Positions 3,086 through 60,233 of a DNA stretch of 64,000 nucleotides are shown here, piece after piece; within the stretch, counting starts at the first letter, position 1; the number at the start of each line of letters is the position of its first letter. This DNA comes from Patescibacteria group bacterium (lineage in GTDB: Bacteria; Patescibacteriota; Patescibacteriia; Magasanikbacterales; GWA2-37-8). A program made the translations under genes and the position numbers. The stretch spans positions 814,594 to 878,593 of the forward strand of contig JBAZNA010000001.1 of assembly GCA_041649475.1 (NCBI GenBank), written 5' to 3'. Under the pieces are notes generated by a model. It was not told where the DNA came from and searched no databases. It saw only the letters and a program-made list of their open reading frames with translations.

Positions 3086-3102
3086 TTTGTGTGTAATAAG
3101 TG

Positions 3103-3193
3103 CGGAGAGGGTGGGATTTGAACCCACGGTACGGGTTTAAAACCGTACAACACATTAGCAGTGTGCCGCTTTCGACCACTCAGCCACCTCTCC
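3103..3193 (-). tRNA. tRNA-Ser (anticodon GCU)
   Basis: Reverse complement folds as a class II tRNA: acceptor GGAGAGG/CCTCTCC, anticodon stem GCACA/TGTGT, loop CTGCTAA, long variable arm, T-loop GGGTTCAAATCCC. No encoded CCA. Confidence 0.85.
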
Positions 3194-3231: not shown

Positions 3232-3885
3232 TCAACCGCTTTTGGCTAACACAAAACCCCGGACCTTATTGGCTCCGTTTTGTTTTAAAACCTTCGCGCA
3301 CTGCGCCATGGTGGCGCCGGTGGTATAAACATCATCAACCAATAAAACATTTTGCGGAGGCGCATCTGCTGATTTCCAGGCAAAAGCGTCTTTTACATTA
3401 TTTTTTCTCTGTTCGCCGGAAAGTTTGGCCTGCTGGACGGTGTTGCGAACCCGAACCAAACCCTTATTTTCAATCGGCAAATCAAAAACTTCAGCCAGGA
3501 GTTCAGCCAAAATCTGCGACTGGTTAAAACCTCTTTCACGCTGGCGGCGCGGGTGAAGAGGCACCGGCACAATTGTAAAACCTGAAACCAAGTCGCATTT
3601 CAAAATAAAACTTTTCCAAATTTCAGCCATCTCACGCGCGTATCCGTATTTAAAACCGCGGATTAATTTGGCAATAAAATCCTGATCATTATAATAAAAC
3701 AAATAAAACAGCCCGTCTAAATCCGTGCCCGCTAAATCAACTGAATCAAAATTTACTTTCGCTGTCTCAATTTTTCCCAAACAGTTTTCACACAGCCACT
3801 CCCCCTCCCGGCCGCACTTGGCGCAAAAAATTGGAAAAAATAAATCTTTTACAAATTTTACAAAAACAAAAAAGCCCCCCTTCAT
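3232..3885 (-). CDS. comFC: ComF family protein (ComFC-like phosphoribosyltransferase-domain competence protein)
   Basis: N-terminal Cys4 zinc ribbon (CAKCGREGEWLCENC) and C-terminal PRTase motif LLVDDVYTTGAT. Confidence 0.7.
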   Translation of the reverse strand: MKGGFFVFVKFVKDLFFPIFCAKCGREGEWLCENCLGKIETAKVNFDSVDLAGTDLDGLFYLFYYNDQDFIAKLIRGFKYGYAREMAEIWKSFILKCDLVSGFTIVPVPLHPRRQRERGFNQSQILAELLAEVFDLPIENKGLVRVRNTVQQAKLSGEQRKNNVKDAFAWKSADAPPQNVLLVDDVYTTGATMAQCAKVLKQNGANKVRGFVLAKSG

Positions 3886-3908
3886 ATATATTATATTTTA
3901 AGCAAACT

Positions 3909-4505
3909 TTATTTCCAAACAAAATCACTAACCAGCCAACTGGTGCCATTTTTCACCATAGACACCGTCACATTCTGATGCAAAGTAGTTGAAACGCCGT
4001 TTTGTTCTTTAATAACCGTTGCCTGCATTTGCACTGTGGCGGACGCGCCATCCCAATCCGACAAATTTGAAGTAATCACCTTTGCGGTCGCGCCGACAAA
4101 ATTGGCGGCCGGGCCGGTGGTAATTTTGGCTTTTAATTTTGACCACAAAGCCGGCGTTACCAAGTCCTGCACGTCTTTAATGTTTTGAAAATTACTGTCA
4201 GTTGAATAAGTGCCATAGCGTTCCGCAAAAATCTTTGCTAGTTGCTCTACACCATTTTGTTCAACCTCCACCGAGGTTAATTTTTTTACTGGCATGCCCG
4301 GCGTCACCGTGGTTGCTCCCTGTCCCAGCTGGGCCGAATTAAAATTATCTTTTTCAACAACACTTCCCGTAGTGGTGGTCGGGTTCTGCGCAATTTGCTC
4401 TTGCGCCGCTTTTTGCTTGGCATTAATTATTAAAAAAACACTGATACCCAAAACTAGCAAAACGACCAAGCTGACAACTACGAAAATTCTGGCGCGTAAA
4501 GACAT
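3909..4505 (-). CDS. bitopic membrane protein, possible VirB8-like T4SS component
   Basis: Single N-terminal TM (IFVVVSLVVLLVLGISVFLII) followed by a ~130-aa extracytoplasmic domain ending in beta-rich WLVSDFVWK. Sits immediately downstream of the VirB4 gene with a 3-nt gap. Confidence 0.4.
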   Translation of the reverse strand: MSLRARIFVVVSLVVLLVLGISVFLIINAKQKAAQEQIAQNPTTTTGSVVEKDNFNSAQLGQGATTVTPGMPVKKLTSVEVEQNGVEQLAKIFAERYGTYSTDSNFQNIKDVQDLVTPALWSKLKAKITTGPAANFVGATAKVITSNLSDWDGASATVQMQATVIKEQNGVSTTLHQNVTVSMVKNGTSWLVSDFVWK

Positions 4506-4508
4506 ATG

Positions 4509-6380
4509 CTATTTTGTTTGTTGTTCAAATTCTTTTTTGGCTTTTTCAATATCCAACAGCTGTTGGGGATTGGTGGTAACAATCTGATCTTCGGTGTAAC
4601 TGGCGACAACCTTGATGGCCGCGTGTTTTGATCCGGCAAAGAAAATCCCCTCGCCTACGCCGCTTTCTAAAAGCAAATATTTTTCACCTTCGGTCAGCAT
4701 AAATGTTTTTTGCACCGTATCAATGGCCGCCGGTGACTGGCGCAGTAATAATTGCAAAGACGAATTAGTGACAATGGCCTGGCCGTATTGCGACCTTAAG
4801 AAATCATTAACATCCTGCGTAATCGTGGTCACGCCCAAGAAATATTTGCGGCAGCGTTTGACCAAAGAAAATATGAACTGGGCGCTGTCTTCGTGTTGCA
4901 TCAGCCACCAGGCCTCATCAATGGCCAAAATGCGCTTTTTGCGCTCGGAACGCACCACGTTCCAAATGTAATTAACAATCGCGTAAATTGCCAAAGGCCG
5001 CAACTCATCTTCCAAATCGCGCACGCTGTATACCACCAATTGATTTTTCATGTCCACGTTGGTGGGCGCGTTAAACAAACCGCTGAAAGTGCCTTCGGTA
5101 AATTTTTTCAGTTTCAAAACCAGTTCATTTGAGCCCTCCATACCTTCCAAAATCTCCTGCAAATCCTGCATAATCGGCGCCTGTACCACGCTCAAATCCG
5201 CTTCCGGCGTAATGTCTTTTTTGGCGTAGGTTTCAATCAAAGCCCGGTCAATGATTGAATCCTGTTCGGTGGTTAACCCGCCGAACATAATACGCAGTAA
5301 GCCCTTGGCGGTAATGACCGCGCTTCGGATAATATCTTCCGTGGAAAATTCCTCGCCGCCGGTTGGCCGCGGCAAATCAAACGGGTTTACCTTGCTTTCC
5401 GATGACAAGGAAATGTTTATATACGTTCCTCCGACCGCTTCGCACAGATGTTTGTATTCCATTTCCGGATCAATCACAATCACATCAACGCCGGTCATCA
5501 TAGTGCGCAAAATTTCTAATTTTATGGTATAACTTTTACCGGCGCCGGCGGTGGCAAACACCACCATATTAGCATTCATCAAAGAAAATCTGTTAAACAA
5601 AATCAAACTGTTGTTGTGGCGGTTAACGCCGTACAAAATTCCGTCATCGGAAGTAAGTTCGGCCGAGATAAACGGAAAAGAGGCCGCTATCGGCGACGAA
5701 TTCATGTTAAAAGCAATCATCAGTTCGTCGTTGGCCAAAGGCAAAGTGGAGTTATATCCCTGTTCCGACTGATACAGCACCTTGCGGCTGGAAATGAGTT
5801 TTGAACCGAAAATATTTTCAACGTCTTCCGAGGTCTGATCAAGTTCTTCTTTGGTTTTGGCGTAAAGCGTCACGTAAAAAGTAAATTGAAAAAAATGCTC
5901 AATGCCTTGGGTGAGATTGTCGCGCAATTGTTCAATGTCGCGCAGCGCTGTTTCGCGAATCGGATCACGTGGTGCGCCTTTTTCCGTGTCAGCGTTTAAT
6001 TGCGCTTCCAAAGCGCCGACTTTGTTGCGCAATTGCTTTAAAATAACGGCCGACTTCACCGGATAAAAGAACATGCCGATATCCATGGTGATTGATAAAT
6101 TCAAAACCGGCGAACTCCAGCCGATGGAAATATACCTCGGATAACTGACCACAAAAATCGTCCGGCAAAATATATCGCCGAGCTTGATATAATTTGACTC
6201 AACATTAAAAGCCGACGGGGCGATCAAGTCCTTAATTGACACCGCTCCCTCGCGATAAAGGCGCTCTTCTTCAAGAGTGACCAATTCTCCGGCCGCCTGA
6301 TTTTTCAGTTTTGTTTCTTCGGTCTCGGGTGCGGGCGCGCCGGATGCCGTTATTTTGCCTAATTGTGGTCTAAAAGCCAT
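4509..6380 (-). CDS. virB4: VirB4/TrbE/CagE-family type IV secretion ATPase (C-terminal ATPase portion)
   Basis: Walker A FATAGAGKSYT and Walker B ILAIDEAWW. Conserved VirB4 C-terminal region (TITQDVNDF). 623 aa is shorter than typical ~800-aa VirB4. Confidence 0.8.
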   Translation of the reverse strand: MAFRPQLGKITASGAPAPETEETKLKNQAAGELVTLEEERLYREGAVSIKDLIAPSAFNVESNYIKLGDIFCRTIFVVSYPRYISIGWSSPVLNLSITMDIGMFFYPVKSAVILKQLRNKVGALEAQLNADTEKGAPRDPIRETALRDIEQLRDNLTQGIEHFFQFTFYVTLYAKTKEELDQTSEDVENIFGSKLISSRKVLYQSEQGYNSTLPLANDELMIAFNMNSSPIAASFPFISAELTSDDGILYGVNRHNNSLILFNRFSLMNANMVVFATAGAGKSYTIKLEILRTMMTGVDVIVIDPEMEYKHLCEAVGGTYINISLSSESKVNPFDLPRPTGGEEFSTEDIIRSAVITAKGLLRIMFGGLTTEQDSIIDRALIETYAKKDITPEADLSVVQAPIMQDLQEILEGMEGSNELVLKLKKFTEGTFSGLFNAPTNVDMKNQLVVYSVRDLEDELRPLAIYAIVNYIWNVVRSERKKRILAIDEAWWLMQHEDSAQFIFSLVKRCRKYFLGVTTITQDVNDFLRSQYGQAIVTNSSLQLLLRQSPAAIDTVQKTFMLTEGEKYLLLESGVGEGIFFAGSKHAAIKVVASYTEDQIVTTNPQQLLDIEKAKKEFEQQTK

Positions 6381-6388
6381 ATAATATA

Positions 6389-7069
6389 CTATTCTACTTG
6401 CAATTGATTAACCGGCCCCAAGTGTTCGCTAAACGCAATATCCGGATTATAGGTTGAATAAAAAAGCTCAATTAGCGACTGGGTGTCTAACCGCACCACT
6501 TCCAAATTCATACTGGCCAAACCGGATTCAATTTGCCGGACTCTCATATCCAAATCATGTTTTCTCTGTTCAAACCGGCTTTCTTTTAGTTTCACGGTCT
6601 TGGCCGGGTTGATAACTTCCGAACTCCGTGACCAAAAACCGCGTTTTTTGTTTGACATGGGATCATAAGGCACAACCACGTAAAATTGCTTGCTCATAAT
6701 TTTCCCTAAACTGACCAACTCGGAAACAAACGACCGGTAATCCGCGATTTGTGCCCGTAGCAGTTCATTGGTCTGCGCGCGCTCCTGCTCCAACAATTTG
6801 GCCAGATACGGTTTGATGTATAACTGTCTGGATTGAATTACAATTTGCAAAGGAAAATCAATTGAATTTAAAAAAGATATATATGAAGAAACAATCGCAT
6901 TTTGCTCGTCTTCATTTTTTAAAGCGAAATTAATACTGGAGACCATCATGACCGCCCGTAAAGTGCCGTCTTTCATCACAATGCTGTCGGATTTAATTTC
7001 CGCGAACGGCAAATGATGCTGGGTTGAAGGGAGCGACTTTTTCTTATTAAGCGCTTGTTTATTTTGCAT
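6389..7069 (-). CDS. hypothetical protein, possibly the detached N-terminal domain of VirB4
   Basis: 226-aa ORF ending 8 nt upstream of the VirB4 ATPase ORF, in a different frame. The combined length of 849 aa matches full-length VirB4. No motif recognised. Confidence 0.45.
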   Translation of the reverse strand: MQNKQALNKKKSLPSTQHHLPFAEIKSDSIVMKDGTLRAVMMVSSINFALKNEDEQNAIVSSYISFLNSIDFPLQIVIQSRQLYIKPYLAKLLEQERAQTNELLRAQIADYRSFVSELVSLGKIMSKQFYVVVPYDPMSNKKRGFWSRSSEVINPAKTVKLKESRFEQRKHDLDMRVRQIESGLASMNLEVVRLDTQSLIELFYSTYNPDIAFSEHLGPVNQLQVE

Positions 7070-7070
7070 A

Positions 7071-7499
7071 CTATTCTTCGGGGTTATAATATCCGCCGGT
7101 GTTTACGATAAGCGATAAATCCCTGATGCGGTTATATGACATTCTGGGCAATTCTTTGACTGCTTCAATCACTTCAACTTTAGACGCGTCCCGAAGTTCA
7201 ACCAGTTCGGCCTGGCTAAAAATTTTCTGCCAAATGCGGCGGCTGGGACGCCTGACGGTTTGAATGATGTTTAAAAGAAAATAATGAAAGGCCTGTCCGT
7301 TTATTTTTACAAAAGCGATAACCAGCGCCGAACCGCCGATAATGGCCGCCAAAAATATAAACAGGGTCAGGTCAGTCAGCTTAAAACAAATAAATAAAAT
7401 CAATCCGGCCGAGAGCAAAATCAAAAATTGTCTGGTCGTCACCGGCCCGAATATTTTGTCCTCAACGTCTATAAATTGCGGCACCACGAATTGTTCCAT
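7071..7499 (-). CDS. small 2-TM membrane protein, VirB3/PrgI-like
   Basis: 142 aa with two adjacent hydrophobic helices (FLILLSAGLILFICF..., FIFLAAIIGGSALVIAFV). Position directly upstream of VirB4 matches Gram-positive-type T4SS gene order. Confidence 0.45.
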   Translation of the reverse strand: MEQFVVPQFIDVEDKIFGPVTTRQFLILLSAGLILFICFKLTDLTLFIFLAAIIGGSALVIAFVKINGQAFHYFLLNIIQTVRRPSRRIWQKIFSQAELVELRDASKVEVIEAVKELPRMSYNRIRDLSLIVNTGGYYNPEE

Positions 7500-7510
7500 A
7501 GGTCTTTACA

Positions 7511-8500
7511 TTATAGCTCTTTTTCCATTTCTATTAAAGCGTCAATTTCACCCAATTGAATCCTGTTTTTATCGGTTAAGGTGGCGGCCAGGGTGCGCCG
7601 GTTAGCCAACGATTCACAAACCGCATTCAGATAATCCAGATAAAGCGGCGACTTATGATAGGCCTCAACCCCGTCCATATACAATAAAAATGATTCATCC
7701 TGCAGATTTAACAATTTTTGTTTTAATCGTTTGGCTGATTCAGCCGGTTTGTCGGATAATTTTCTAAAATCAGAAATGGTCAGGTATTTTATCTCTTCCA
7801 CCGGTCCCATCTCAATCGGAGACGCGGTGATGTCGCGCACAAACGGCTTAATCGCCGGCTGGCTGTTGGATAACGAGAAAGACGGTTCAAACTTTTTTAT
7901 AATTTCTTCTTTTTTGGGCGCATTAAATTTGGGCGCGCTAACCGGATTAACTGCCGGTTTGCGTTCAAAAGGATTAAACGGCGCATCTTTAGTCGGCATT
8001 TCCCGTAGTTCAACTTCCTGGCACGCCTTTAACAATTTTTCGGCCTGTGCCGGCAAAAGTCCGAGACCGCCGTCTTTGGTCTGCCGCACTGCCGTCTCCC
8101 TGGTTTCTTCATCACTGCGCAAATCTTTTAACCGCAACTGAATCACGCTGCGCATTCTGTTTTTAAACTCCTGCGGGATCTTAAAATCAAGTTTGGCCAC
8201 CACCTTGTCCACTTCGCTTTCCCTGGTTTGACTGGTTGTCGGCGCGGAATTATCTTTTAAACCCAACTTTTCTTCCAACAGCGAGCTGGCATCATCGCGC
8301 GTCCAATTTTTTTTCGGTGGCTGGGGCTGGGGTTTTGGTTGTTGCCTAATTGGCGCCGGCGGTTGAACCGGCTTCGGTGTTGGTTTGGGGGCTGGCTGTG
8401 GCGGCGCGTTCTGTTTTCTCAAATCAGAAAGTTTCATCATAACAAAACTGCCGTCTGCTTTTTTTACCCGCACCATTGGTTGTTGATTTTGATCTGGCAT
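7511..8500 (-). CDS. proline-rich hypothetical protein
   Basis: Low-complexity PQPAPKPTPKPVQPPAPIRQQPKPQPQPP tract. Start set at internal Met to avoid an 89-nt overlap with the upstream ORF. Confidence 0.45.
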   Translation of the reverse strand: MPDQNQQPMVRVKKADGSFVMMKLSDLRKQNAPPQPAPKPTPKPVQPPAPIRQQPKPQPQPPKKNWTRDDASSLLEEKLGLKDNSAPTTSQTRESEVDKVVAKLDFKIPQEFKNRMRSVIQLRLKDLRSDEETRETAVRQTKDGGLGLLPAQAEKLLKACQEVELREMPTKDAPFNPFERKPAVNPVSAPKFNAPKKEEIIKKFEPSFSLSNSQPAIKPFVRDITASPIEMGPVEEIKYLTISDFRKLSDKPAESAKRLKQKLLNLQDESFLLYMDGVEAYHKSPLYLDYLNAVCESLANRRTLAATLTDKNRIQLGEIDALIEMEKEL

Positions 8501-8525
8501 ATTTTTTATCCGCTCTCGCGGCGCT

Positions 8526-9419
8526 TTATATAGCCCATTTAAATTTTCCGTCTTTTTCGTCAAAATAATACAGCTCGGCAATTTTTGGATCTTTATATTT
8601 TTCCGATAATTCATTTAACCGGTTTAACACGCCTTCAATATTTGTAAATTCGCCCTGGGGGTTCTTTTTAAATTCAGAGGAGATTTGGGATTTGATTTCA
8701 CTCAAACTTTTTTTATTTTCAACTTTAGGTTGCGGTGGCGCTTCAGTCGCTTCAACCATATCTTGATGCAAATAATTATCTACTGCATTCACAATATTAT
8801 CCTCGTCAACTGTAGAAAAAAATATGGCTAATTCCATAAATCTTTCCATCATAACATTTGGGTCGGCCAAAAAATATTTGGCAATCACCGGATCGTTTTG
8901 AGGATAAATTATTTGCTTTAATTTATTTTCAAAATCCGCTTGCATGAGTGTGTCGGCACTGCGATTGACATTATTCATTTCTTTAATCAGATCAGAGATG
9001 ATAACTTTTTTTCCTTGCCAATCTCCAACCTTTGCCTGTGATTCTAAAAAAACCGGCTTCATTTTCAAACACAGACTTTGCATGTCCGATTTTTCCAGCG
9101 TCTTCATTTCAAAATACTGCATCAACTGTTCAAGGACATCAAAGTCAAGTGCCAAAGCCATGGGAATTTGTCTGGCAACCGCCACATTAACCAAAAAATC
9201 ACGATCTTGCGACCCGAACATTTTCCATGTCAGTTCAGTATAAATTCTAAAGTATGTCCATCTAAATTTTTCATCATCCAAAGATGAACTATTTCTAAAA
9301 AAAGCATCCAAAGATTGCCACGTCTCCTGCATCACGGATATGTTAACATGAGAGTCACGGATTTGCCGTTCAATATTCTCAAATTCTTGTGGTGTAATCT
9401 CGGTTACAGTTAACCTCAT
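8526..9419 (-). CDS. hypothetical protein (T4SS-like cluster member)
   Basis: 297-aa ORF, no TM, no recognisable motif. Tightly packed in the same-strand cluster. Confidence 0.45.
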   Translation of the reverse strand: MRLTVTEITPQEFENIERQIRDSHVNISVMQETWQSLDAFFRNSSSLDDEKFRWTYFRIYTELTWKMFGSQDRDFLVNVAVARQIPMALALDFDVLEQLMQYFEMKTLEKSDMQSLCLKMKPVFLESQAKVGDWQGKKVIISDLIKEMNNVNRSADTLMQADFENKLKQIIYPQNDPVIAKYFLADPNVMMERFMELAIFFSTVDEDNIVNAVDNYLHQDMVEATEAPPQPKVENKKSLSEIKSQISSEFKKNPQGEFTNIEGVLNRLNELSEKYKDPKIAELYYFDEKDGKFKWAI

Positions 9420-9430
9420 ATATTGTTGTT

Positions 9431-12400
9431 TTACTTTGGCTTGCTATTATTTTTTTCCAAATCCTTTATCCATTCTTTAACCATTTCTTTTTGTTCCTTT
9501 TTGATGGTTTTTTCTACTCTTTCCAAGGCGCTCTTTATCAAGTTAGCCACAGCGCCCCTGTCTTTGCTTGATTGATCCACACTCGTTTGCAATTGCTTAA
9601 GTTTTTTCACATCAGAATACTGCAGGATGTCACCCAAATCTGTTTTGACATATTCATCAACCTGATCCAACCGTGTAGAAGTGAGTGGCGCTAACAAATC
9701 AGCCACTATCTTTATAGATTCATCGGATTCAACAATAGCTTTTCTGTCCTCATTTTTATCTACAGCTCCTTCCAAGCCAGCACTAATACTGGTAATTTTT
9801 GCGGATGACCTTGCGGCTGTTCTTCTTCTTTGAATATGTTCTTTTCCTCCAGCACTACCGGCATCTGTGAGCCCCGTGGTAATACTTCCATCTGCCTGTA
9901 ATGTATCCTGGAGCAAACCGGCGACAGAAAACACACCCTGCCCTGCGGCCTTATCAAGGGACAAACGCAGCTGTTCCAACAAGGCCTGCGATCGTTCTCC
10001 GTGTATAGCGCCAAACTGCTTCACAGCTGCTTCCAACCCGTCTGGGCTTGCCGCTACCTTTTCACCAATGAGAGATGAAAATATGGCCGCTTGTACCTTC
10101 CTTACAGAACCAGCATCACTCGGATCTACGGAAATATTCTTAAGTAATTCCGGATCTACTAATTTTGAAATATTATCCATGTTTCCCAAACCAATCGCAC
10201 CGTGCTGTTCCCAATTGCCAATCTGCATTTCTGCCAAGCTCTTTTGAATCTGCGAATGTTTAAGCTTAGCCGCCACGACTGCCCTCTGATCTCCGCGTGA
10301 CTCGGCTGCCGCCAACTCTTTAAGCGCTTCGTCTTGTTTGTTGTATAATCCTTCCGTCCTAATAATTGACCTAGGGAAGTCAGTACCCACTGATTGCATA
10401 TCAATTCTTTGTTTTGCTTGTTTGCTCAAAACATTTTCCAAATTATTTGCTTCAGAAAAACGATTATTGCTTCTCAAGACCGCATCCCTGGCGCGGGCCA
10501 CATTACGTTCCTTTATTTCATTCATATCCGTATTCAACTGTTCAATCTGTGCTCTTCTGTCCGTAATATCCGCTTGCACAACTTTCCCTTGATCACTTGT
10601 TAACACTTTTTTGATCTCCTCTAATTCCTTCAGTTCTCTTTCTGCGTTCAACTTATCTTCCATTTGCTTAGTCTCCGCTTTGGCTGCAGCCGCACGCAAC
10701 ATCCTCTCTCCACCTTCTCCGGCCATTAATTTTTGCTTTATCCGCGCCCTATCTTCCTCTTGTGTTGCCTTTAACATCTGCTCTATATTTTCAGCTTCAA
10801 TAGCAGATTTATCAGCATTATTTAATCGCTGATAATCAGAAGTTTGCCGAGCATCAAATTTCCCGGATGCCTCCAGTTCTTCCAAAACCTGCTTTTCTGA
10901 TTTTCCCGCACCTTTACCCGCGGCAACCGCGGCCGCTATAGCTCTATTATCTTCATCTTGTTCTTCATATTTTGTCTGTAATTTTCGCCTCTTAATATCC
11001 TGACCGGTTCTCTTCAGTTTTTCCAAGTCCGCTTCTTCTTGTAGCTTTCTTTGGCCGGTCGGGGTCTTGCTGGTGCTTATTCTATGCTCTTGTTGCTCTA
11101 TTGCATATTTTGCAGCTGTTTCTTCATCCTTTGCCAATTCATTCTTAAACCGCTGGGGTGCAAACATCAAACCAAGTCTGGCGCCATATCTTTTCCATCT
11201 ACTTTTTTCTGTAAACTCACCTTGTTCATTTTTTCCAAAGGCAGTATCTATCCTTCTCCCCGCCGCTACAATTCTCGGCTCAACATAACCCTTGTTCCAC
11301 GCTTGTGATACTCTGCTCTTTATACGAAGCCCTCTTGCTTGCCACGCCTCTCCACCCACAAGAGGAGCTTTCATCAAAGCAAACTTTCCGGCCTTTTTTC
11401 CGGCCTCCATACCCTTTCTACCCACATACCTCGCCGCGGTCAGACCACTGGCGATCTTAGCCGTCTTTTCAACCGCACTGCTAAGCATTGACCCGCCATA
11501 CACTCCCAATTCCTGGGCCATTTTGGCTCCGGCCATCAGCATACCAATGGCAATGGCGAAGTTGGCTAAAGCGACCCAGGTCATGCCTCCGCCCACTCCT
11601 GATTTTTGGCCAACGCCCGCGTCATCAACAGCCGCCCAGGTATCACCGGCCGGCAGAGGATTATTGGCAGAACTGGTAATATCAGATTGAATATCACCCG
11701 ACCCCAAAGTAACAAAAGCCAGCCAAATAAAAAAGGCAATGAGCGGACCAGAGACGACGTTGTTACCGAATTCTTTCCACCACCGATCGGCATAACCTTT
11801 TGTTTTTGGTAAAACATTTAAGACAAAAGCTAAAGGAGATAAAACAATCAACACCCAAAGCATAACCATCCTGGCTAACAGCATAATTGCAAAAACACCC
11901 ATGGTCACCATCATCATTGCCGAAAAAACTAATCCGCCCAAAGATGCCAAAAATACATTACCGGGCGTAATTTCATTCGGCTTGGCCTGACGAGCCAGAT
12001 TAAGAATATTATTAACATTAAACATGTTAATTAAATTCCCACCGGCAGTTGCGGCCACACCGTTGATAAAAGTGATCATTATCACCTGCGCGAAGTCAAT
12101 TATAATTCCGGCAATTTGCCGGCTGAAGTTCACCAGTACGGCCGCGAATATTAATTTGCTTAATAATTTTTTCCAGGAATAATCTTCAATCCCCAAAATT
12201 GTGGCAAAAGCAATAATAAGCAAAACTATGACAAAAAACATGTTGGTTATGTCGCGCACCATGATCCAGCCGATATTTACGGCCGGAGACCTGATATATC
12301 CGTTATAACCCCCAAGAGTGATGACAAACTTAAGTAAAAATATTGAAATTTGAATAAACCAACCGGCGATTGTTAACAGTATGGTACCAATCAGATTGGC

Positions 12401-12604
12401 AGCCGTTGTCCATATATCTGCAGCAGCGGTGGCAAGTCCGGTTGCGCCAAACCACATGATTAAAATCAAACTCGCACAGATAATAAAACCAACCAAACCG
12501 ATTCGCTTTCGCTTTGGTGTTAAAAACTGCCAAAATGTTTTTATTTTAACCGCAATAACGGCAAGCATGCTTAAATTATACCACATTTGGCTACTTCCGC
12601 GCAA
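9431..12604 (-). CDS. VirB6/TrbL-like polytopic membrane protein with long charged coiled-coil C-terminal extension
   Basis: N-terminal ~330 aa contain 6-7 predicted TM helices, as in VirB6/TrbL. The remaining ~700 aa are K/E/R/Q/A-rich heptad-like sequence. Confidence 0.6.
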   Translation of the reverse strand: MRGSSQMWYNLSMLAVIAVKIKTFWQFLTPKRKRIGLVGFIICASLILIMWFGATGLATAAADIWTTAANLIGTILLTIAGWFIQISIFLLKFVITLGGYNGYIRSPAVNIGWIMVRDITNMFFVIVLLIIAFATILGIEDYSWKKLLSKLIFAAVLVNFSRQIAGIIIDFAQVIMITFINGVAATAGGNLINMFNVNNILNLARQAKPNEITPGNVFLASLGGLVFSAMMMVTMGVFAIMLLARMVMLWVLIVLSPLAFVLNVLPKTKGYADRWWKEFGNNVVSGPLIAFFIWLAFVTLGSGDIQSDITSSANNPLPAGDTWAAVDDAGVGQKSGVGGGMTWVALANFAIAIGMLMAGAKMAQELGVYGGSMLSSAVEKTAKIASGLTAARYVGRKGMEAGKKAGKFALMKAPLVGGEAWQARGLRIKSRVSQAWNKGYVEPRIVAAGRRIDTAFGKNEQGEFTEKSRWKRYGARLGLMFAPQRFKNELAKDEETAAKYAIEQQEHRISTSKTPTGQRKLQEEADLEKLKRTGQDIKRRKLQTKYEEQDEDNRAIAAAVAAGKGAGKSEKQVLEELEASGKFDARQTSDYQRLNNADKSAIEAENIEQMLKATQEEDRARIKQKLMAGEGGERMLRAAAAKAETKQMEDKLNAERELKELEEIKKVLTSDQGKVVQADITDRRAQIEQLNTDMNEIKERNVARARDAVLRSNNRFSEANNLENVLSKQAKQRIDMQSVGTDFPRSIIRTEGLYNKQDEALKELAAAESRGDQRAVVAAKLKHSQIQKSLAEMQIGNWEQHGAIGLGNMDNISKLVDPELLKNISVDPSDAGSVRKVQAAIFSSLIGEKVAASPDGLEAAVKQFGAIHGERSQALLEQLRLSLDKAAGQGVFSVAGLLQDTLQADGSITTGLTDAGSAGGKEHIQRRRTAARSSAKITSISAGLEGAVDKNEDRKAIVESDESIKIVADLLAPLTSTRLDQVDEYVKTDLGDILQYSDVKKLKQLQTSVDQSSKDRGAVANLIKSALERVEKTIKKEQKEMVKEWIKDLEKNNSKPK

Positions 12605-13280
12605 TAATATATAGATAGTGTCCCCAGAAAGGAAAAATCCTGTTTAAAATGCCATCAAAAACACCAGCAATCGGCATATCCGCGTAAGGCGGTTTGGCAA
12701 AAAACTTGACTGAAGAGAAGCCATTTCGCCTTAACCAGTGTTTAAATTTAAATGGCGAATATTTTTTGTGCGTGCCATAAGGCCAGCGTTTTTTTATGCG
12801 CAGATACCATTCCTGCATAACACCGAATGAAAGCAGATTCGGCTGAACAATAATTAACAAACCGTCAGGTTTGAGCACCCGGCGCGCCTCGGATATTGCT
12901 TTTTCAATTTCATCAAAATATGTGAGCACGCCCCAGCTTAACACCACATCAAATGTCTGGTCGCTAAAAGGCAAAGCCCGCGCGTCCGCAACCTGGTAAG
13001 TATTCATATTAGTTGGTTCAATTGCCTTTGCCCGTTCAATTGCCCCGCTGGAAATGTCTATGCCACAACCGGTTGTCTGAAAATTTTGTTGTAAATATCT
13101 TAGCGCCGCTCCGTCGCCACAGCCCGCATCCAACACTTTTTTGCCCAAAAAATCAATGCCAAAATTCACCAGATCAGAAATTTTTTCTTCTGTTTTAAAC
13201 ACCCGCCGCGGGTAAAGAGAATACTGATTATTTTTTAACCAGATGGCATCCCACCGGTCAGAGATAGAATTTTTTGGCAT
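12591..13280 (-). CDS. class I SAM-dependent methyltransferase
   Basis: Motif I LDAGCGDGAA and motif post-I GIDIS, Rossmann MTase fold. Overlaps the downstream VirB6-like gene by 14 nt. Confidence 0.8.
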   Translation of the reverse strand: MPKNSISDRWDAIWLKNNQYSLYPRRVFKTEEKISDLVNFGIDFLGKKVLDAGCGDGAALRYLQQNFQTTGCGIDISSGAIERAKAIEPTNMNTYQVADARALPFSDQTFDVVLSWGVLTYFDEIEKAISEARRVLKPDGLLIIVQPNLLSFGVMQEWYLRIKKRWPYGTHKKYSPFKFKHWLRRNGFSSVKFFAKPPYADMPIAGVFDGILNRIFPFWGHYLYIIARK

Positions 13281-13285
13281 ATTTC

Positions 13286-13314
13286 TACTATATTTCTAAA
13301 CGGCGGGGTTGTCA
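13286..13314 (-). promoter_or_regulatory. sigma70-type promoter for methyltransferase / T4SS-like operon (TTGACA-17-TATAGT), near-leaderless
   Basis: Minus-strand reading is TTGACAaccccgccgtttagaaaTATAGTagaaatATG. The -10 ends 6 nt before the ATG. Confidence 0.5.
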
Positions 13315-13343
13315 ATGAGTTGGCTAAAGATTATAATTCATTC

Positions 13344-13422: not shown

Positions 13423-15375
13423 ATGACCAAGATCGGCTTCTGTTTCGTGGCGTTTCTCGCGTTCATCCTGTGCGCCTGTGGTGGTAACTCCGGAACCGGT
13501 GATGGCGGCACGGACAACCACGACAGCGCCGTCAGCGACGGCACCCTGCCCAACGACGCCAGGGATACGGCCCCTTCGGAGTGCACGAGCAACGCGCAGT
13601 GCGACGATGGCATTGACTGCACGGACGACACCTGTTCGTCCTCGGGCTGGTGCACCAACACGCTGGTGCCGGCGCGGTGTCCGACAGGTACGTGGTGTAA
13701 TCCCACCAAAGGTTGCGAGGCCGGAAAGGCCTGCGCCAAGGACGAGGATTGCGACAGCACCGATGCCTGCGTCGTGAACAACGGCTGTGATCCTGCCTCG
13801 CGCGTCTGCATGTGGTCAGTGCTTGACGGCGATGGCGATGGACAGCCCCCGCTTGTGTGCGGCGGAACCGACTGTGATGACAGCGACTCCGACGTCTACG
13901 CCGGAGCTCCCATGCGTTGCAACGGCAAAGATAACAACTGCGATGGGATCGTGGATACCGGAACCGCCACGGACGAATGGTGCAACGAGACCTACGGACC
14001 GGGTCACGCCTGCCAGTCAGGGCACTGCGTCTGTACGACCGGGACACAGTGCGGGTACACGTGTGCGGACTTGCTCACCGACAAGAACCACTGTGGCACA
14101 TGTTTCAACCCATGTCCGCTCAATGAAGTGTGTGTACAGGGTCAGTGTGAGTGCCCGAGCAGTGGCCAGACATTCTGTGCTGTTGATGGCTGTGTTGACC
14201 TCACGAGCGACAAATACAACTGTGGCGAGTGTGAACACGGCTGCTGGGCAGACCAGACATGCGTAGCAAGTCAGTGCGCGTGTTCAGGCAACCTGACGCA
14301 ATGCGGTTCGTGTGTGGACACACAAACCGACAACGACAACTGCGGTTCGTGCGGTCACGCCTGCAGCTCGCCTGCCAGCTGTGTGTCGGGTCAGTGCCAG
14401 TGTCCGACCAGTGGCCAGAGCTATTGCGATGGCGCCGGCTGTGTGGATCTTCAGACCGACCACGACAACTGCGGCACATGCGGGCACGCGTGCCGTGCAA
14501 GCGATACATGCTGGAGCGGCAGCTGCCCGGCTTACTGGAAAAACGTCGTGAGTAACACGGCGCTGAAGCTCAACGCAGTATGGGGAGCCGCACCCAATGA
14601 TGTCTGGACTGTTGGAAACTACACCACTGGCTCCCTGGGAGGCGCCATCCACTGGAACGGTAGCTCGTGGGCGCCTATGGGTGGCGCGACATCGAAACTC
14701 TACGGAATCTGGGGAACCACGCTTAATTTCTGGGTCGTTGGAGAAACCAGCGGGTACCTCGAGGTCTGGAATGACGTCTCCGGCACTTGGGAGGGTATAC
14801 CCAACGGGTGCACGACAGCTTCCCTCTATGGTATCTGGGGAACTGCGATTGATGATACCTGGTTCGTTGGAGCCGCCGGAACGACTGTCTATTTCAACGG
14901 CAGTACGTTCTCATGCGTCCCCAGCGGTTCAACGAATGTCCTCCATGGAGTAGGAGGCACCGCCAACAATGACGTCTGGACAGTAGGAGACGGCGGTACC
15001 ATCCTCCATTGGAATGGAAGCACGTGGTCCAGCGTGACCTCCAATACGACGAACGCCCTCTATGGAGTGTGGGGCAACACCACCAGTGATGTCTGGGTGG
15101 TGGGCGACTACGGTACCACTCTTCACTGGAATGGAAGTGTGTGGTCAGCCGTCGTCAGCTACACAGGATCAAAACTCAACGGCGTGTGGGGCAGTAGTGC
15201 CAACGATGTCTGGGCTGTGGGAGATGTCGGGGTCATCCTCCACTGGAACGGGAGTAATTGGTCCACTGTTGCCACAGGGACAACGGCACATTTCTCTGCC
15301 GTGTGGGGCAACAGCGCTACTGACATCTGGGTTGTGGGAGAAGCGGGAACCACTCTCCACTACTACACGTACTGA
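13423..15375 (+). CDS. secreted Cys-rich lipoprotein with putative metal-binding Cys/Asp motif, CGxCGHxC repeats and eight C-terminal ~40-aa propeller-like repeats; very GC-rich
   Basis: Start ATG at 13423 after SD AAGGAGAGG. Signal peptide plus Cys lipobox region (FLAFILCACGG). DGDGDGQPPLVCGGTDCDDSDSDVYAGAPMRCNGKDNNCDG matches the MopE-type putative metal-binding motif. The C-terminal repeats follow WGxxxxDVWxVGxxGTxLHWNGSxWS, eight copies. GC3 is far above the genome background. Confidence 0.75.
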   Translation: MTKIGFCFVAFLAFILCACGGNSGTGDGGTDNHDSAVSDGTLPNDARDTAPSECTSNAQCDDGIDCTDDTCSSSGWCTNTLVPARCPTGTWCNPTKGCEAGKACAKDEDCDSTDACVVNNGCDPASRVCMWSVLDGDGDGQPPLVCGGTDCDDSDSDVYAGAPMRCNGKDNNCDGIVDTGTATDEWCNETYGPGHACQSGHCVCTTGTQCGYTCADLLTDKNHCGTCFNPCPLNEVCVQGQCECPSSGQTFCAVDGCVDLTSDKYNCGECEHGCWADQTCVASQCACSGNLTQCGSCVDTQTDNDNCGSCGHACSSPASCVSGQCQCPTSGQSYCDGAGCVDLQTDHDNCGTCGHACRASDTCWSGSCPAYWKNVVSNTALKLNAVWGAAPNDVWTVGNYTTGSLGGAIHWNGSSWAPMGGATSKLYGIWGTTLNFWVVGETSGYLEVWNDVSGTWEGIPNGCTTASLYGIWGTAIDDTWFVGAAGTTVYFNGSTFSCVPSGSTNVLHGVGGTANNDVWTVGDGGTILHWNGSTWSSVTSNTTNALYGVWGNTTSDVWVVGDYGTTLHWNGSVWSAVVSYTGSKLNGVWGSSANDVWAVGDVGVILHWNGSNWSTVATGTTAHFSAVWGNSATDIWVVGEAGTTLHYYTY

Positions 15376-15710: not shown

Positions 15711-16166
15711 ATGCGCTACAACATCAAGAAGATCCTCGCGATCATGGGCGGCTTCGCCCTTGTTCTCATCGCTGTTGCGGCCCTCACCGGCTGTGGTGGC
15801 GACGATCCCCAGTGCGGAACCGACGGTCAGCCCCCGTGCGACGTTCAGGCCGACGGCGGCACCGACGGCACGCCGACCCAGCAGGACGCTGGCGACGGCG
15901 GTGTCATCAAGACCGACGGCGGCGACGCGGGCGGAGATCCGTGCGCGGCGTTCAATCCTTACCTGAACGGATGGACCTGCAAAACCGCTCCGAATGACCC
16001 ACTGTCGTTCTCCTGCAATTTCCTGCCTACCGCCGATGGCAGTGCATGCCAGATTGGCTGCTATGGCCACTTCTCGTGCATTGCTCCTCCGGAGATGTTG
16101 ACGTCGCAGGAGTTTACCTGCGATATGATCGGCGCTCCCGGAAACATCCGCATCTGTGTCCACTAG
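15711..16166 (+). CDS. small secreted Cys/Gly/Asp-rich lipoprotein; very GC-rich
   Basis: ATG at 15711 after SD AAGGAGAAACC. Signal peptide with classic lipobox LTGC. Eleven Cys in a 151-aa mature part. GC3 very high. Confidence 0.7.
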   Translation: MRYNIKKILAIMGGFALVLIAVAALTGCGGDDPQCGTDGQPPCDVQADGGTDGTPTQQDAGDGGVIKTDGGDAGGDPCAAFNPYLNGWTCKTAPNDPLSFSCNFLPTADGSACQIGCYGHFSCIAPPEMLTSQEFTCDMIGAPGNIRICVH

Positions 16167-16294: not shown

Positions 16295-19200
16295 TTACTG
16301 TGGCGCGACAATGATACTACCGAAAAATGAAGTTGAAGCAGTAGTCAAATAATTGTCGCACTCATTGACATAAGGGGATGTCCACCCCTTATCATAACAC
16401 CCACCCAGCCCATTGTGATCACAACTCCCATTACACCACCCCCAATTATCCTTCACCTGCACGGACGGTTTGAAGACGCAACAGCCACCCGGGAAACGCG
16501 CGTCCGGACAAGTGTCTTGCCAGCCGGTGCCGTCTTTTAGACATTGGTAAACGTGGTCAAAACGGAAGTATGAGTTGTCACAAGATTTATCCAATATCTG
16601 ACCGAAATTGACAGACAAACTCTCCGACAGACACTGATCCAAATATTTACAATCAGCGGATTTAACACAAGTTTTGCCGGTGTCCACGTTAACTGTGGTG
16701 CGACTGTCTGTGGAAAGGGCAGAAATATATTCCGTAGCTTGGACTTTACAAGTGCCGTTTGTGCATGTACCGGCAACTACGCCGCGATGGTTGCGATAAT
16801 AGCCATTAAGGTTGGTCAAATCACCGTCACCCCAACTGACAATAACATTTCGCAAAGGCATTTGATTGGCGTCGGCAAAGGCGTAAAATTTAATGTTGGC
16901 CGGGAAGACGTATGACGGAGAAACTACATTACCGGTTGATTGATCGTTGACGGTGATACCCGGATTACCTTCACCGCATCTGCCGGCTAAACATGCTTGC
17001 GTGTTAAGAGAGCGGACTTCGGGCGGTCTCGGTGTTAATCCCGAACATGCTTGCACAGAACTTCCGCTTAAGGTAACGTTCGGACAAATGTTTTTATCTC
17101 CTTTTTCCGTATAATTATTGTTGACGTAATAGGTTGAATTGGGAACATAGGCCTTTGAGTTAAAACTATATTCCAAATCCGCATAAACGCTCGCAAAAAT
17201 CTTGGCCGCGGCCTTTTGGCCTTGATCTAAAACAAAGTTGCTGGCCGGACTCTTTTTAACTCCGCCTGAATCGGTGGTCATGGTACAACCACTGCCATTA
17301 TCATACTGACAACTGAAAGGAGCGCCGGAAACTTGTTTGGGGGCTGTTAAATTGTATTTACACGTACAATCATAAGTCGTGCCGTCGGATTTTACCGGAC
17401 AGGGATTGCACTCACTCTCCGCCTTTGGCATGGCGCCGACAGGACTAAGCACAACAGGACTAACCGGTTGGGTATTCTGACCAATACTGCCAAATGGACT
17501 ACGATTGGTTAAATAATCATAACCCACCCAATCAGCAATCTCCGGTCCGCCAAAATCTCTTATTGAATACTTTGATTTTTGCCATAAACGATCTGTCCAA
17601 GCCACAGCGCGTCCGCCACTGGGATTAATACCACTGTCAACGGACACATCCAAAATCTTTTCGCACCACTGCCTTACTCTAAATTTCACGTCATAGTTAA
17701 TATGTCCTGTATTAGCAGAATCATCACAATAAGCTAAATAATAACCCAAAAACTTACCGGTATTTTCATCAAACTTTAACCGAACAGCATGCCAATTTCC
17801 AAAATTTTTACTAGATAATGTACAGATATCATCCATACTGATGCTTCTATTCCAAATGCCTTCCACGCCCAAGCTTCTGTTGTTAGAGGTTTTTAAAGTG
17901 TCGGCTTGCAGAATATTACCGGATAATGTGGCACAAGTTAAAGTATCCCCGCTATAACCATAACAAACCGAACCATCATCCTTAAGATAAGTGCTATTTA
18001 CCGGGTCGGCCTCATTCTTGGAAGCGCTACTATACATTAATATAAATTCATTTGCTTTACCTAAATATTTGCCAACTACAGCATGCCCAAAAGGACTAAC
18101 ATTACCGCCTCTGGTATTAAGAGCAAACACTGCTTGAGGGGTTCCAACAGGCGCGGTATTATCATTAGGCCAAACTTCAAAAACAGTACCTACTCTAGGA
18201 TCCTCCGTATCATCACCGGTCACCGTGAATTGAATTTTTTCTATGTCAGCCAAACGTAAATTCTTCTCTCCATTATTTGAGTCAGCAGGCACAAAAGCTC
18301 TTATATATGCATTGTCGGATTGTTCCATCCACCATCCGGTCTCGAGAATATTCGTATCACCCAGACCATTTGCGGTGTGCATTTGTAAATTTTCAGTACT
18401 CCCCTCTATGGCGGGATTTGGCTTGGCCGTCCACTCAAAATAATAAGGAGTAGCACCTACATATCCCATCACTTTATTTCCACTCAAACAATAATACCTG
18501 CCTCCATTTGAAGGATTAACATATCCGGCTTCCCTGTCCTGGCCATTGACATCCGGAGCGCCGATTAGAGTGTCAACCGGATACCAAGTCAAACAAGTGT
18601 TGGTCTTGCCGTCCGCGTTTAATTGTCTGGAAATATCCGGCTCCAAACAATAACCGTGCCAGCCCACAAAACTGGTTTGCTTGGTGGCTTTGTTGCAAGT
18701 GCCGCCGTCCGGACAATCAGCATCGGTTTCACAAACCTTGCCGTCACGGGTGCCATTGGAACAAATTCCGCCCACCACTCCCTTAATCATCGTATTGTTC
18801 ACGCCGGCAATGCCAACCAAATTATTCGGATTGCTTAAATTCCAATACTTGGAAATTGAATCCCCATAACTGACTTTTGTATAATCACATTCGCAGGCAC
18901 CCGCCGCACTCGCATCAGTGGTCACACCTGTCCCACTTTCATTGCACAAATTCGCGCCGGCATAATTTTGCGCTGATTTCAAACTTTGCGTGTTCGGATA
19001 CGGCGCGCTTTCTTCCGGATAATTGCGGCAAGTTTGTTTGGGCGCGTTAGCGTCAAAGTCGGCGGCCGTGCCGTTTGGGTTTAAAACGCAGACCGAATTA
19101 TTGCTGGCGGTTTTTTCACACAAACCAATGCCGCCGCGGCCGCACTTATCCGTACCTGCTTTGCAAAGATAAGATTCAGTTTTGGTTGAATCCTGGCAAT

Positions 19201-34215: not shown

Positions 34216-34857
34216 TTAGTCGTGCGGATTATAAATCCATTCGCAATTTTTACTGCGGGCGATATCAGCCGGAGTCACCTCTTCAAGCGCCAGGGGCAAA
34301 TCCCGCTTGTCCATTCCGTCTTTAAAAACTACGGCCTGTTTCTGTTCTTTGGCCACAGCGTTATAAAAAGCTTTTTGTATGAATGAACTGCAGACAAAAG
34401 TATCCTTATTTATTAGAAAATCCTTGACATGCTTATTGCCGCCTTTTAATTTAAGCTCCACAAATTTAAGCAAAAATCCCAGCAACCTCAAATAGTCATA
34501 GGGAATATCCACATTATTCATCAAAAACGACAGGACTCTGGCCCTGACTTCTTCGGACAGCCCGGGTACGCGTTTAACCCCCAGTTCCAAAAAATCAAAA
34601 TGTTTTGTGTATTTCTGGATGCGGTGAATTTCAATACCGTGATCTTCCGCGCTAATAATTAAAATATTCTTAAACAAACGACTCTTATTGGGCACAAAAA
34701 AAACAATGACGGCATGATTCCAATAACTACCCAAAATTTTCCGGATGGATCCGGAAAGCGCCGAACGGGTGTCTCTGGTTAAGATGATATCCGCTACCTG
34801 CAATTTTGATTCAATTTTTTTCCAAGCTGCGGCGCGCCTTTTACCCCGGGGCATCAT
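34216..34857 (-). CDS. YiiX/YaeF-family permuted papain-like (peptidase C92) protein, paralog 1
   Basis: ADIILTRDTRSALSGSIRKILGSYWNHAVIVF resembles the GDLIFxR...SxWSHVGIV motif. Downstream Cys motif TFVCSSFIQKAFY resembles KFYCSELV. No signal peptide. Confidence 0.55.
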   Translation of the reverse strand: MMPRGKRRAAAWKKIESKLQVADIILTRDTRSALSGSIRKILGSYWNHAVIVFFVPNKSRLFKNILIISAEDHGIEIHRIQKYTKHFDFLELGVKRVPGLSEEVRARVLSFLMNNVDIPYDYLRLLGFLLKFVELKLKGGNKHVKDFLINKDTFVCSSFIQKAFYNAVAKEQKQAVVFKDGMDKRDLPLALEEVTPADIARSKNCEWIYNPHD

Positions 34858-35489: not shown

Positions 35490-35504
35490 AAAATTAGTTT
35501 TTAT

Positions 35505-60228: not shown

Positions 60229-60233
60229 ATGTT

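Follow-up and report, generated by a model that had tools for sequence, protein, structure and literature searches.

A probable Patescibacteria-clade type IV secretion locus in the ABY1 arrangement, with comFC as its last gene

In a survey of 3,035 Patescibacterial genomes, Quinonero-Coronel et al. 2025 (Microb Genom, PMC12102498) described type IV secretion systems (T4SSs) whose VirB4 proteins form a monophyletic Patescibacteria clade nested in MPF_FATA, with TrsD as the most abundant companion, a VirB3 of the PrgI type and a VirB6 detected with the MPF_T profile. VirB8 homologues were found almost only in class ABY1, under which Magasanikbacteria are listed (Table S1 of that survey), relaxases were near absent, and genes for the type IV coupling protein (T4CP) lay mostly far from virB4. 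KsgA and origin-proximal genes stood near the T4SS loci, which in ABY1 'commonly include' comF, recG and radA, and pilins occurred near virB4 in only 1135 of 1948 assemblies, so that a pilin is not a defining feature of the clade. Here we analysed a minus-strand gene cluster running from position 13280 to position 3232 of a 64-kb stretch (the window) of the 963-kb genome of a Patescibacteria group bacterium of the Magasanikbacterales (assembly GCA_041649475.1, contig JBAZNA010000001.1). Its gene content and order make it very probably a vertically inherited chromosomal T4SS of the Patescibacteria clade in the ABY1 arrangement, derived from monoderm MPF_FATA conjugation machinery, and the locus is a further member of an already catalogued arrangement.

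The Patescibacterial T4SS is a leading candidate for how auxotrophic epibionts extract host macromolecules, and in the sole species tested, Southlakia epibionticum, it is essential for epibiotic growth (PMC10633639). Its role has been called 'completely unknown' (PMC11665869), and later commentaries, which also describe the function as unknown, put forward the delivery of effectors and the uptake of nucleotides or DNA (PMC12857230, PMC11665869).

Components of the cluster

The cluster consists of nine tightly packed, co-directional open reading frames (ORFs), listed here from 5' to 3' with the evidence for each.

12591..13280, minus strand: class I S-adenosylmethionine (SAM)-dependent methyltransferase, 229 aa (Pfam, motif I)
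9431..12586, minus strand: extended VirB6/TrbL-like protein, 1051 aa (Pfam TrbL, hydropathy)
8526..9419, minus strand: soluble acidic protein, 297 aa (clade-specific; no Pfam or NCBIfam match)
7511..8500, minus strand: Pro-rich soluble protein, 329 aa (structure model)
7071..7499, minus strand: PrgI/VirB3-like protein, a hairpin of two transmembrane (TM) segments, 142 aa (Pfam PrgI)
6389..7069, minus strand: TrsD-like protein, 226 aa (NCBIfam TrsD/TraD)
4509..6380, minus strand: VirB4 ATPase, 623 aa (NCBIfam, Pfam, Walker motifs)
3909..4505, minus strand: VirB8-like bitopic protein, 198 aa (AlphaFold and Foldseek)
3232..3885, minus strand: ComFC, 217 aa (TIGR00201, Pfam Pribosyltran, motifs)

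The original prediction for this DNA had spoken of ten ORFs, although its own list sums to nine, separated by 2-25 nt or overlapping. With start codons matching the NCBI annotation, the gaps from 5' to 3' are 4 or 22 nt between the methyltransferase and VirB6 (the NCBI start of VirB6 is 12568, giving 1045 aa), then 11, 25, 11, 1, 8, 3 and 23 nt; the tight packing therefore stood, at 1-25 nt, and overlaps arose only with longer alternative starts. Names already given by NCBI on this genome comprise ComF (in full 'ComF family protein'), TraC-family for TrsD, PrgI, 'type IV secretion system protein' for VirB6, and methyltransferase.

The 623-aa VirB4 passed the cut-off of NCBIfam conju_CD1110 (362.9 bits versus 325), also matched Pfam P-loop_TraG, AAA_10 and DUF87, and aligned with the VirB4 ATPase domain of Thermoanaerobacter (PDB 4AG5) at E 6e-49. 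Both of the predicted Walker motifs are present (Walker A, ATAGAGKS; Walker B, ILAIDEAW). Its best 120 database matches were all Patescibacteria, many of them named Magasanikbacteria; the top match, a protein of a Patescibacteria metagenome-assembled genome, was 100% identical and the next 119 were at 79-87% identity; together with the hidden Markov model (HMM) matches of the components and the published clade, this agreed with the earlier proposals that the system resembles the Gram-positive-type T4SS of the candidate phyla radiation and that the organism is a Patescibacterium. Directly upstream, the 226-aa ORF, one of two that had been left without a function, proved to be TrsD-like and a homologue of the VirB4 N-terminal domain. 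It matched NCBIfam TrsD/TraD at E 2.3e-8 (34 bits, under the 200-bit cut-off) and aligned to the N-terminal parts of full-length VirB4 models (Mbov_0397 91-233, CD1110 2-95, PRK13853 10-154), and the 623-aa ATPase aligned to CD1110 model positions 173-730, indicating that VirB4 is effectively split over two genes. A search with TrsD against PDB sequences gave no match.

Two of the membrane components named in the original prediction were recovered by their Pfam models. The PrgI protein scored 41 bits against a gathering score of 27, its TM hairpin being visible in the sequence; its gene is upstream of VirB4 as proposed, but two genes away rather than immediately adjacent, the TrsD gene lying between. 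The VirB6-like protein matched TrbL at 28.3 bits over its whole length and 30.3 bits over its N-terminal 420 aa (gathering score 25.9), and TrbL was also matched by 12 of 46 VirB6 homologues. Hydropathy placed about eight TM segments in residues 1-352 and, after them, a tail of ~690 aa that is hydrophilic and has much Ala, Lys and Glu, a layout that fits the 'extended VirB6' type of the T4SS literature (PMC12857230); a profile of the TM domain compared with PDB sequences gave nothing credible.

No sequence HMM matched the 198-aa protein itself, for which a VirB8-like identity had been suggested. Its 51 homologues were aligned, and an AlphaFold model (mean pLDDT 81) predicts a TM helix at the N-terminus (3-35), then disorder in a linker (35-67), and, with confidence, an NTF2-like domain of helix and curved sheet (78-197); the neighbours of the model were of the VirB8 family. 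Top Foldseek matches in the PDB were DotI (3wz5), the VirB8 domain of PrgL from pCF10 (7aed), TcpC (3ub1), CagV (6iqt), an IcmL-like protein (5cnl), TraH of pIP501 (5aiw), Rickettsia VirB8 (4o3v), OrfG of ICESt3 (7pkw) and TrwG. Target-normalised TM-scores were ~0.5-0.7 for single-domain VirB8-family targets (DotI 0.71) and only ~0.33 for TcpC and OrfG, because the chains of these two hold additional domains; other NTF2 proteins (CaMKII hub, ARC6) also matched, as expected of the fold. A family profile of the protein comprised 1917 representative clusters of the same length, and one family member had a sub-threshold match to Pfam VirB8 (E 0.004). Bitopic topology, the position right after VirB4 and the predicted fold thus support a VirB8-like assignment.

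ComFC, predicted to end the array, indeed does so. It carries a four-cysteine zinc-finger motif (C21xxC24...C32xxC35) and a phosphoribosyltransferase domain with a phosphoribosyl pyrophosphate (PRPP) loop, VLLVDDVYTTGATM, for which the signature tested was DDxxTTGxT; the ComFC of H. pylori reads DDIITTGTTL (PMC9005727). The protein matched TIGR00201 comF at E 1.6e-34 (119.5 bits, under the cut-off of 233.55), and Pfam Pribosyltran also matched.

The 297-aa and 329-aa proteins encoded between VirB6 and PrgI, both devoid of TM segments and signal peptides, are clade-specific components. Neither matched Pfam or NCBIfam, Pfam named no family for any of the 40 members of the Pro-rich family, and profiles of the two families (that of the 297-aa protein built from 21 homologues) found nothing credible among PDB sequences. 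The C-terminal part of the 297-aa protein carries the conserved motif ..YNDPxIADLYYFDExxGKFxW. The model of the 329-aa protein contains an N-terminal beta-hairpin, a disordered Pro-rich linker and helical domains at 94-166 and 233-328 (the C-terminal one with pLDDT >90), with no meaningful structural neighbour.

Conserved order in ABY1 relatives

We compared the cluster with 80 loci, one genome per species, from Magasanik-, Falkow- and Uhrbacteria, BM507 and other Patescibacteria, using tblastn and ORF maps; many of the missing cases in the following counts are loci ended by contig ends. The conserved order was a large Cys-rich secreted protein, in many loci a small divergent lipoprotein, then VirB6, 297-aa-like protein, Pro-rich protein, PrgI, TrsD, VirB4, VirB8-like protein and ComFC. 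VirB4 was present in all 80 loci, and syntenic homologues were found for TrsD in 79, PrgI in 76, the VirB8-like protein directly after VirB4 in 71, the Pro-rich protein in 69, ComFC directly after the VirB8-like gene in 67, and VirB6 (744-1873 aa) in 48; the 297-aa-like protein was recognised in 21 of the 80, with divergent ORFs in the same slot elsewhere. With this order repeated in 80 species-level genomes, chance is a most unlikely origin of the array. The original prediction had regarded a methyltransferase-led array with a giant VirB6 and a terminal ComFC as undescribed; a giant VirB6 and a terminal ComFC turned out to be the rule in ABY1, the methyltransferase was syntenic in none of the 80 loci, and the comF association, TrsD, the missing relaxase and the restriction of VirB8 matches to ABY1 have been published (PMC12102498).

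Across 58 loci comFC followed the VirB8-like gene at a median distance of 3 nt, a spacing as close as that of any other two neighbours among the cluster genes. On the 3' side of comFC the neighbourhood varied among the relatives (SUF genes, RecG or others), which marks ComFC as the conserved end of the unit.

One relative, L047 (3609-4862, plus strand), had PrgI and TrsD in one continuous ORF of 417 aa, either a VirB3-TrsD fusion or a sequencing error; no VirB3-VirB4 fusions were reported for Patescibacteria in the published survey (PMC12102498). Many public records carrying Patescibacterial T4SS clusters are titled 'uncultured Gammaproteobacteria bacterium' (L002-L004, L007, L009-L011 and others) and one 'Candidatus Udaeobacter sp.' (L025), titles that look like mislabelled taxonomy of metagenome-assembled genomes.

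Chromosomal setting and the region upstream of virB6

Outside the nine genes, four neighbours bear on the cluster, one bounding it downstream and three lying upstream.

3102..3193, minus strand: tRNA-Ser(GCU) (ARAGORN, Rfam), the downstream boundary of the cluster
13423..15375, plus strand: Cys-rich lipoprotein-like protein, 650 aa (Pfam Stig1, Cu-binding_MopE)
15711..16166, plus strand: small Cys-containing lipoprotein, 151 aa (lipobox LTGC)
16295..23998, minus strand: giant secreted Cys-rich protein, 2567 aa (signal peptide, 4.1% Cys)

The giant protein has 105 cysteines, a signal peptide and a weak CBM_4_9 match. Its homologues stand directly upstream of VirB6, co-directional, in at least 16 loci, some with gaps of only 48-190 nt, and other large Cys-rich ORFs hold this position in further loci; the T4SS may have in it a surface or adhesin partner. 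The small lipoprotein gene is divergent from the T4SS genes, and its place between the giant Cys-rich gene and virB6 is conserved in many ABY1 relatives. The copies are weakly homologous across loci and share a lipobox and a Cys-containing C-terminal domain (L005 3037-3543, L006 1953-2630, L007 2680-3210, L025 2707-3237 and L053 1755-2252, all minus in locus orientation). In the window this gene has a GC content of 0.60 and a third-position GC (GC3) of 0.72, compared with 0.36-0.47 GC for the neighbouring genes; over the window and its relatives the values are 0.52-0.65 against a genome GC of 0.40-0.44. Simple recent horizontal transfer of the GC-rich genes was rejected, the lipoprotein having both its position and its high GC conserved in relatives too. 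The giant protein and the small lipoprotein are candidate host-contact parts; adhesins were not among the genes detected in the published survey.

Between the small lipoprotein gene and virB6, the window holds the 650-aa Cys-rich gene (GC 0.59, GC3 0.69) and the methyltransferase gene (GC 0.43, like the rest of the genome). The former is absent from that position in most relatives, a related gene being found there only in L051. The latter encodes a SAM-dependent methyltransferase, as the original prediction had it, of class I by HMM (Pfam Methyltransf_11, 86 bits; motif I VLDAGCGDG; NCBI MFA5062310), and has no syntenic counterpart in any of the 80 loci, including those with 84-87% identical VirB4; two matches only were found among them, at 28-33% identity, ~7 kb downstream of ComFC on the opposite strand. 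In the relatives, virB6 is preceded by a promoter composed of a TTATCCCCA box, a TTGTTG -35 and a TGnTATAAT extended -10, 15-30 nt before the ATG, with seven exact matches to the pattern. These comparisons indicate that the methyltransferase and the GC-rich Cys-rich gene are inserted between the conserved upstream neighbours and virB6, displacing the native virB6 promoter.

The TTATCCCCA box, a candidate regulator site, lies 5-14 nt upstream of the TTGTTG -35 in Magasanikbacteria-like relatives (L002 1985-2011, L005 3534-3553, L015 575-595, L026 3798-3818, L027 2255-2275; visible also in L009 and L065). It is absent from the cluster in the window, where the sole match is a chance hit inside gyrA.

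Three promoter-like sites on the minus strand, all consensus matches, stand next to the cluster genes and the tRNA gene.

13287..13315, minus strand: TTGACA-17-TATAGT, the -10 ending 6 nt before the methyltransferase ATG (13280)
ending 4 nt before the comFC ATG, minus strand: TTGGAA-17-TATAAT
3235-3207, minus strand: TTGACT-17-TATAAT, the tRNA-Ser gene's own site

The first corresponds to the near-leaderless promoter that had been predicted before 13280 and is present as a consensus match only; with its -10 lying 6 nt from the ATG, a transcript starting there would be leaderless or nearly so. It sits in a divergent intergenic region of 109 nt together with two plus-strand promoter-like sites. 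We looked for an internal promoter at the methyltransferase-virB6 junction and did not find one. The native virB6 promoter region being absent and the methyltransferase standing in its place, the T4SS genes of this genome are probably transcribed through from the methyltransferase promoter. Tight packing and the lack of convincing internal terminators are consistent with an operon, and a single promoter for the whole unit, as originally envisaged, is not assertable from the sequence, because the sites are consensus matches and an equally good one precedes comFC.

Throughout the window, Shine-Dalgarno sequences are nearly absent and a TATAAT-like hexamer occurs 4-12 nt before many start codons (for example upstream of 3885, 6380, 7499, 13280, 37178, 40026, 56199 (+ start 54703) and 61007), a pattern that suggests that mRNAs with no leader or a very short one are frequent in this organism.

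The flanks of the window are housekeeping genes (KsgA, Sua5, RF1, GroEL, YidC, NusA, FtsH, S1, UvrABC, GyrA, RelA, ParAB), and the cluster genes have GC contents of 0.36-0.47, as in the rest of the genome. A Pfam scan of every window ORF of at least 120 aa and of small intergenic ORFs found no VirD4, relaxase, VirB2-like pilin, VirB11, VirB1-like hydrolase or integrase in the 64 kb, bearing out the earlier statement that VirD4, relaxase, VirB2, VirB11 and lytic transglycosylase are missing from the window. For the pilin, neither a TrbC nor a T4SS_pilin match turned up, and the cluster and its surroundings contain no small ORF with two TM segments.

Two readings of this setting would make the cluster something other than an inherited T4SS of the clade. 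One takes it for a conjugative element, an integrative and conjugative element (ICE) or one derived from a plasmid, or a decaying remnant of such an element integrated in the chromosome. Such an origin would suit the best VirB4 model, which is that of the CD1110 family known from CTn-type ICEs of Clostridioides; conjugative plasmids, too, have TrsD and PrgI among their components, and a tRNA gene abuts the cluster. Yet the window holds no relaxase, T4CP, integrase or repeats, the genes are intact, tightly packed and of native GC, dozens of species have the cluster in the same chromosomal surroundings, their divergence tracking vertical descent, and in the published tree the Patescibacteria clade is monophyletic and transfer between classes is rare (PMC12102498); on synteny, flanks and composition we rejected an ICE or conjugative remnant as extremely improbable. 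The other makes the methyltransferase the functional first gene of a novel T4SS operon, modifying for instance the transferred substrate or an envelope component. Its gene is co-directional with virB6 at a distance of 4-22 nt, has native GC and follows the only strong promoter-like site; nevertheless, the protein is of a generic class I small-molecule type with no DNA-methylase signal by HMM (N6_N4_Mtase E 0.046), and the gene occupies the place of the conserved native promoter. Since it is syntenic in none of the 80 relatives, the methyltransferase was rejected as a T4SS component and is better regarded as an incidental insertion, a role as operon leader being very unlikely; the feature behind the apparent novelty of the array then arose by accident in a single genome.

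Near the right end of the window lie ParB, ParA and GyrA (59380-61007, minus strand; 52199-54673, plus strand), and the cumulative GC skew flattens to a minimum at ~56-64 kb, which suggests a replication origin close to that end. The T4SS cluster would then be ~50-60 kb from the origin, in line with the origin-proximal T4SS genes reported for Patescibacteria. A PilB-like T2SSE ATPase (35505-37178, minus strand; 557 aa, 410 bits) belongs to type IV pili and not to the T4SS cluster. Downstream of its gene, on the same strand, are two tandem Peptidase_C92 genes (YiiX-like permuted papain), and together the three genes (34216-37178, minus strand), at ~22 kb from the T4SS, seem to belong to a module for type IV pili or the envelope.

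Proposed function and comparison with known systems

With no relaxase or T4CP at the locus, the cluster probably does not encode a conjugation machine, and we propose a translocon serving a host-dependent lifestyle. VirB4 would form hexamers, with TrsD supplying the missing N-terminal domain, anchored through PrgI, and VirB4 and TrsD would energise a VirB6/VirB8 channel in the single membrane of a monoderm envelope. The cargo would be nucleic acid, acquired where the cell touches its host and then passed on to ComFC. In H. pylori, ComFC binds single-stranded DNA (ssDNA), is membrane-associated, links DNA transport to cytoplasmic handling and is required for ssDNA transport and handling (PMC9005727), and the ComB T4SS of the same species has been cited as a DNA-uptake precedent (PMC11665869). 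Since such an ssDNA-binding, membrane-associated factor is encoded tightly against the cluster in several ABY1 orders, our preferred reading of cargo and direction, if only a tentative one, is traffic in nucleic acid with ComFC as the handling factor.

A system that exports effectors is nearly as likely, doubtful as it also is. The T4SS would here deliver proteins to the surface or the interior of the host cell, the giant Cys-rich protein or other surface factors among them, and ComFC would be a syntenic passenger acting in ComEC-dependent competence. Researchers on Saccharibacteria speculate on effector delivery (PMC11665869), and Wang et al. proposed protein export because a coupling protein and a relaxase are missing (PMC10633639); the soluble 297-aa and 329-aa proteins, which have neither TM segment nor signal peptide, could be substrates or chaperones. 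Effector export is held back by the lack of any recognisable effector, chaperone or secretion signal, by the lack of a T4CP in the window to recruit substrates, and by the packing of ComFC, as tight as that of the core genes in 58 loci over several ABY1 orders. A number of points weigh, in turn, against the assignments or against the part given to ComFC. The TrbL score of VirB6 is barely over its threshold, and those of TrsD and ComF are below the NCBIfam cut-offs. ssDNA binding and a requirement in transformation are known only for the ComFC orthologues of H. pylori and Firmicutes (PMC9005727, PMC12663950). comFC has a promoter-like site of its own, which also speaks for export, and it is not adjacent to the cluster in BM507-type relatives (L061, L067-L069), so that its link to the T4SS could be one of conserved neighbourhood only. 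Genes for pilins, a hydrolase or a coupling protein of VirD4 type may lie in parts of the genome outside the window. Growth of S. epibionticum does not require comEC, comF or dprA (PMC10633639; PMC12857230), which argues against an obligatory ComF-T4SS partnership, at least in Saccharimonadia, and, the T4SS being essential there, favours export.

Nucleic-acid traffic gains from the tight packing of ComFC a concrete and testable protein-protein prediction. A bolder and less probable proposal joins the T4SS, ComFC and the giant Cys-rich surface protein into one machine importing host nucleic acid in ABY1: the giant protein and the lipoprotein would make host contact, the VirB6/VirB8/PrgI channel, powered by the split VirB4, would import single-stranded nucleic acid, and ComFC would receive it on the cytoplasmic face. 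If this unlikely combination were true, a T4SS-ComFC uptake route for nucleotide acquisition would run parallel to ComEC or replace it, and would explain why, in Patescibacteria auxotrophic for nucleotides, ComEC is dispensable and the T4SS is not.

Among systems suggested as functional analogues, H. pylori ComB with ComEC/ComFC and archaeal Ced are precedents for DNA-importing VirB4-family machines, and the analogy is functional only. ComB is a diderm VirB2-B10 system whose genes are unlinked to comFC, whereas the cluster here gave no matches to VirB7, VirB9 or VirB10; CedA was not found, and the similarity of the window VirB4 to CedB is weak (54 bits versus a cut-off of 700; CedD 22 bits). 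Membership in the ComB or Ced family was ruled out on these grounds.

The monoderm MPF_FATA systems (pCF10 prgH-I-J-K-L; pIP501/pGO1 tra/trs; C. difficile CTn CD1110) are structurally much closer. They share the order VirB6-like, then VirB3-like, VirB4 and VirB8-like, a TrsD as in the pGO1/pIP501 subclass, a VirB4 over the CD1110 cut-off, and the NTF2 fold predicted here for the VirB8-like protein and seen in PrgL, TraH, TraM and TcpC. Unlike them, the cluster has no relaxase, T4CP (PcfC/TraJ), VirB1-like hydrolase (PrgK/TraG) or PrgB-type adhesin, and it is chromosomal and vertically inherited, with a VirB6 tail of ~690 aa and an attached ComFC.

The T4SS of Southlakia epibionticum ML1 (SEML1_0006-0019; Wang et al. 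2023, Cell, PMC10633639) is likewise chromosomal and of Gram-positive type, with VirB3, VirB4, VirB6 and TrsD homologues in a cluster where neither a relaxase nor a coupling protein is recognisable, and it presumably serves a life that depends on a host. It differs in an essential array of VirB2-like pilins and in a peptidase and a lysozyme downstream of virB4; in the window there are no pilins or hydrolases, and the cluster ends in ComFC. No structural VirB8 homologue was found in the S. epibionticum proteome (per PMC12102498), in contrast to the clear VirB8-like protein here. Essentiality was shown for that system.

The closest match is the ABY1 T4SS of PMC12102498, with which the locus shares a Patescibacteria-clade VirB4, an adjacent TrsD, a PrgI-type VirB3, a VirB6 matching MPF_T or Pfam TrbL and not PrgH, and a VirB8 (PrgL-like) beside VirB4, an example in Table S3 of that survey having VirB8, VirB4 and TrsD adjacent. 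In both, moreover, virB4 has no relaxase or T4CP gene close by, comF belongs to the locus, KsgA is a near neighbour and the position is proximal to the origin. They differ in the methyltransferase and the GC-rich Cys-rich gene upstream of virB6 in this genome, and in that no recG, radA or VirB2-like pilin lies within this window. The giant Cys-rich protein, the small lipoprotein and the two soluble proteins between VirB6 and PrgI go unmentioned in the main text of PMC12102498, and the VirB8-like gene, near-universal in ABY1 clusters by our count (71 of 80 loci), compares with a few dozen found by HMM in that survey. The new points appear to be the near-universal VirB8-like gene of ABY1, the giant Cys-rich protein and lipoprotein upstream of the cluster, and the two conserved soluble proteins within it.

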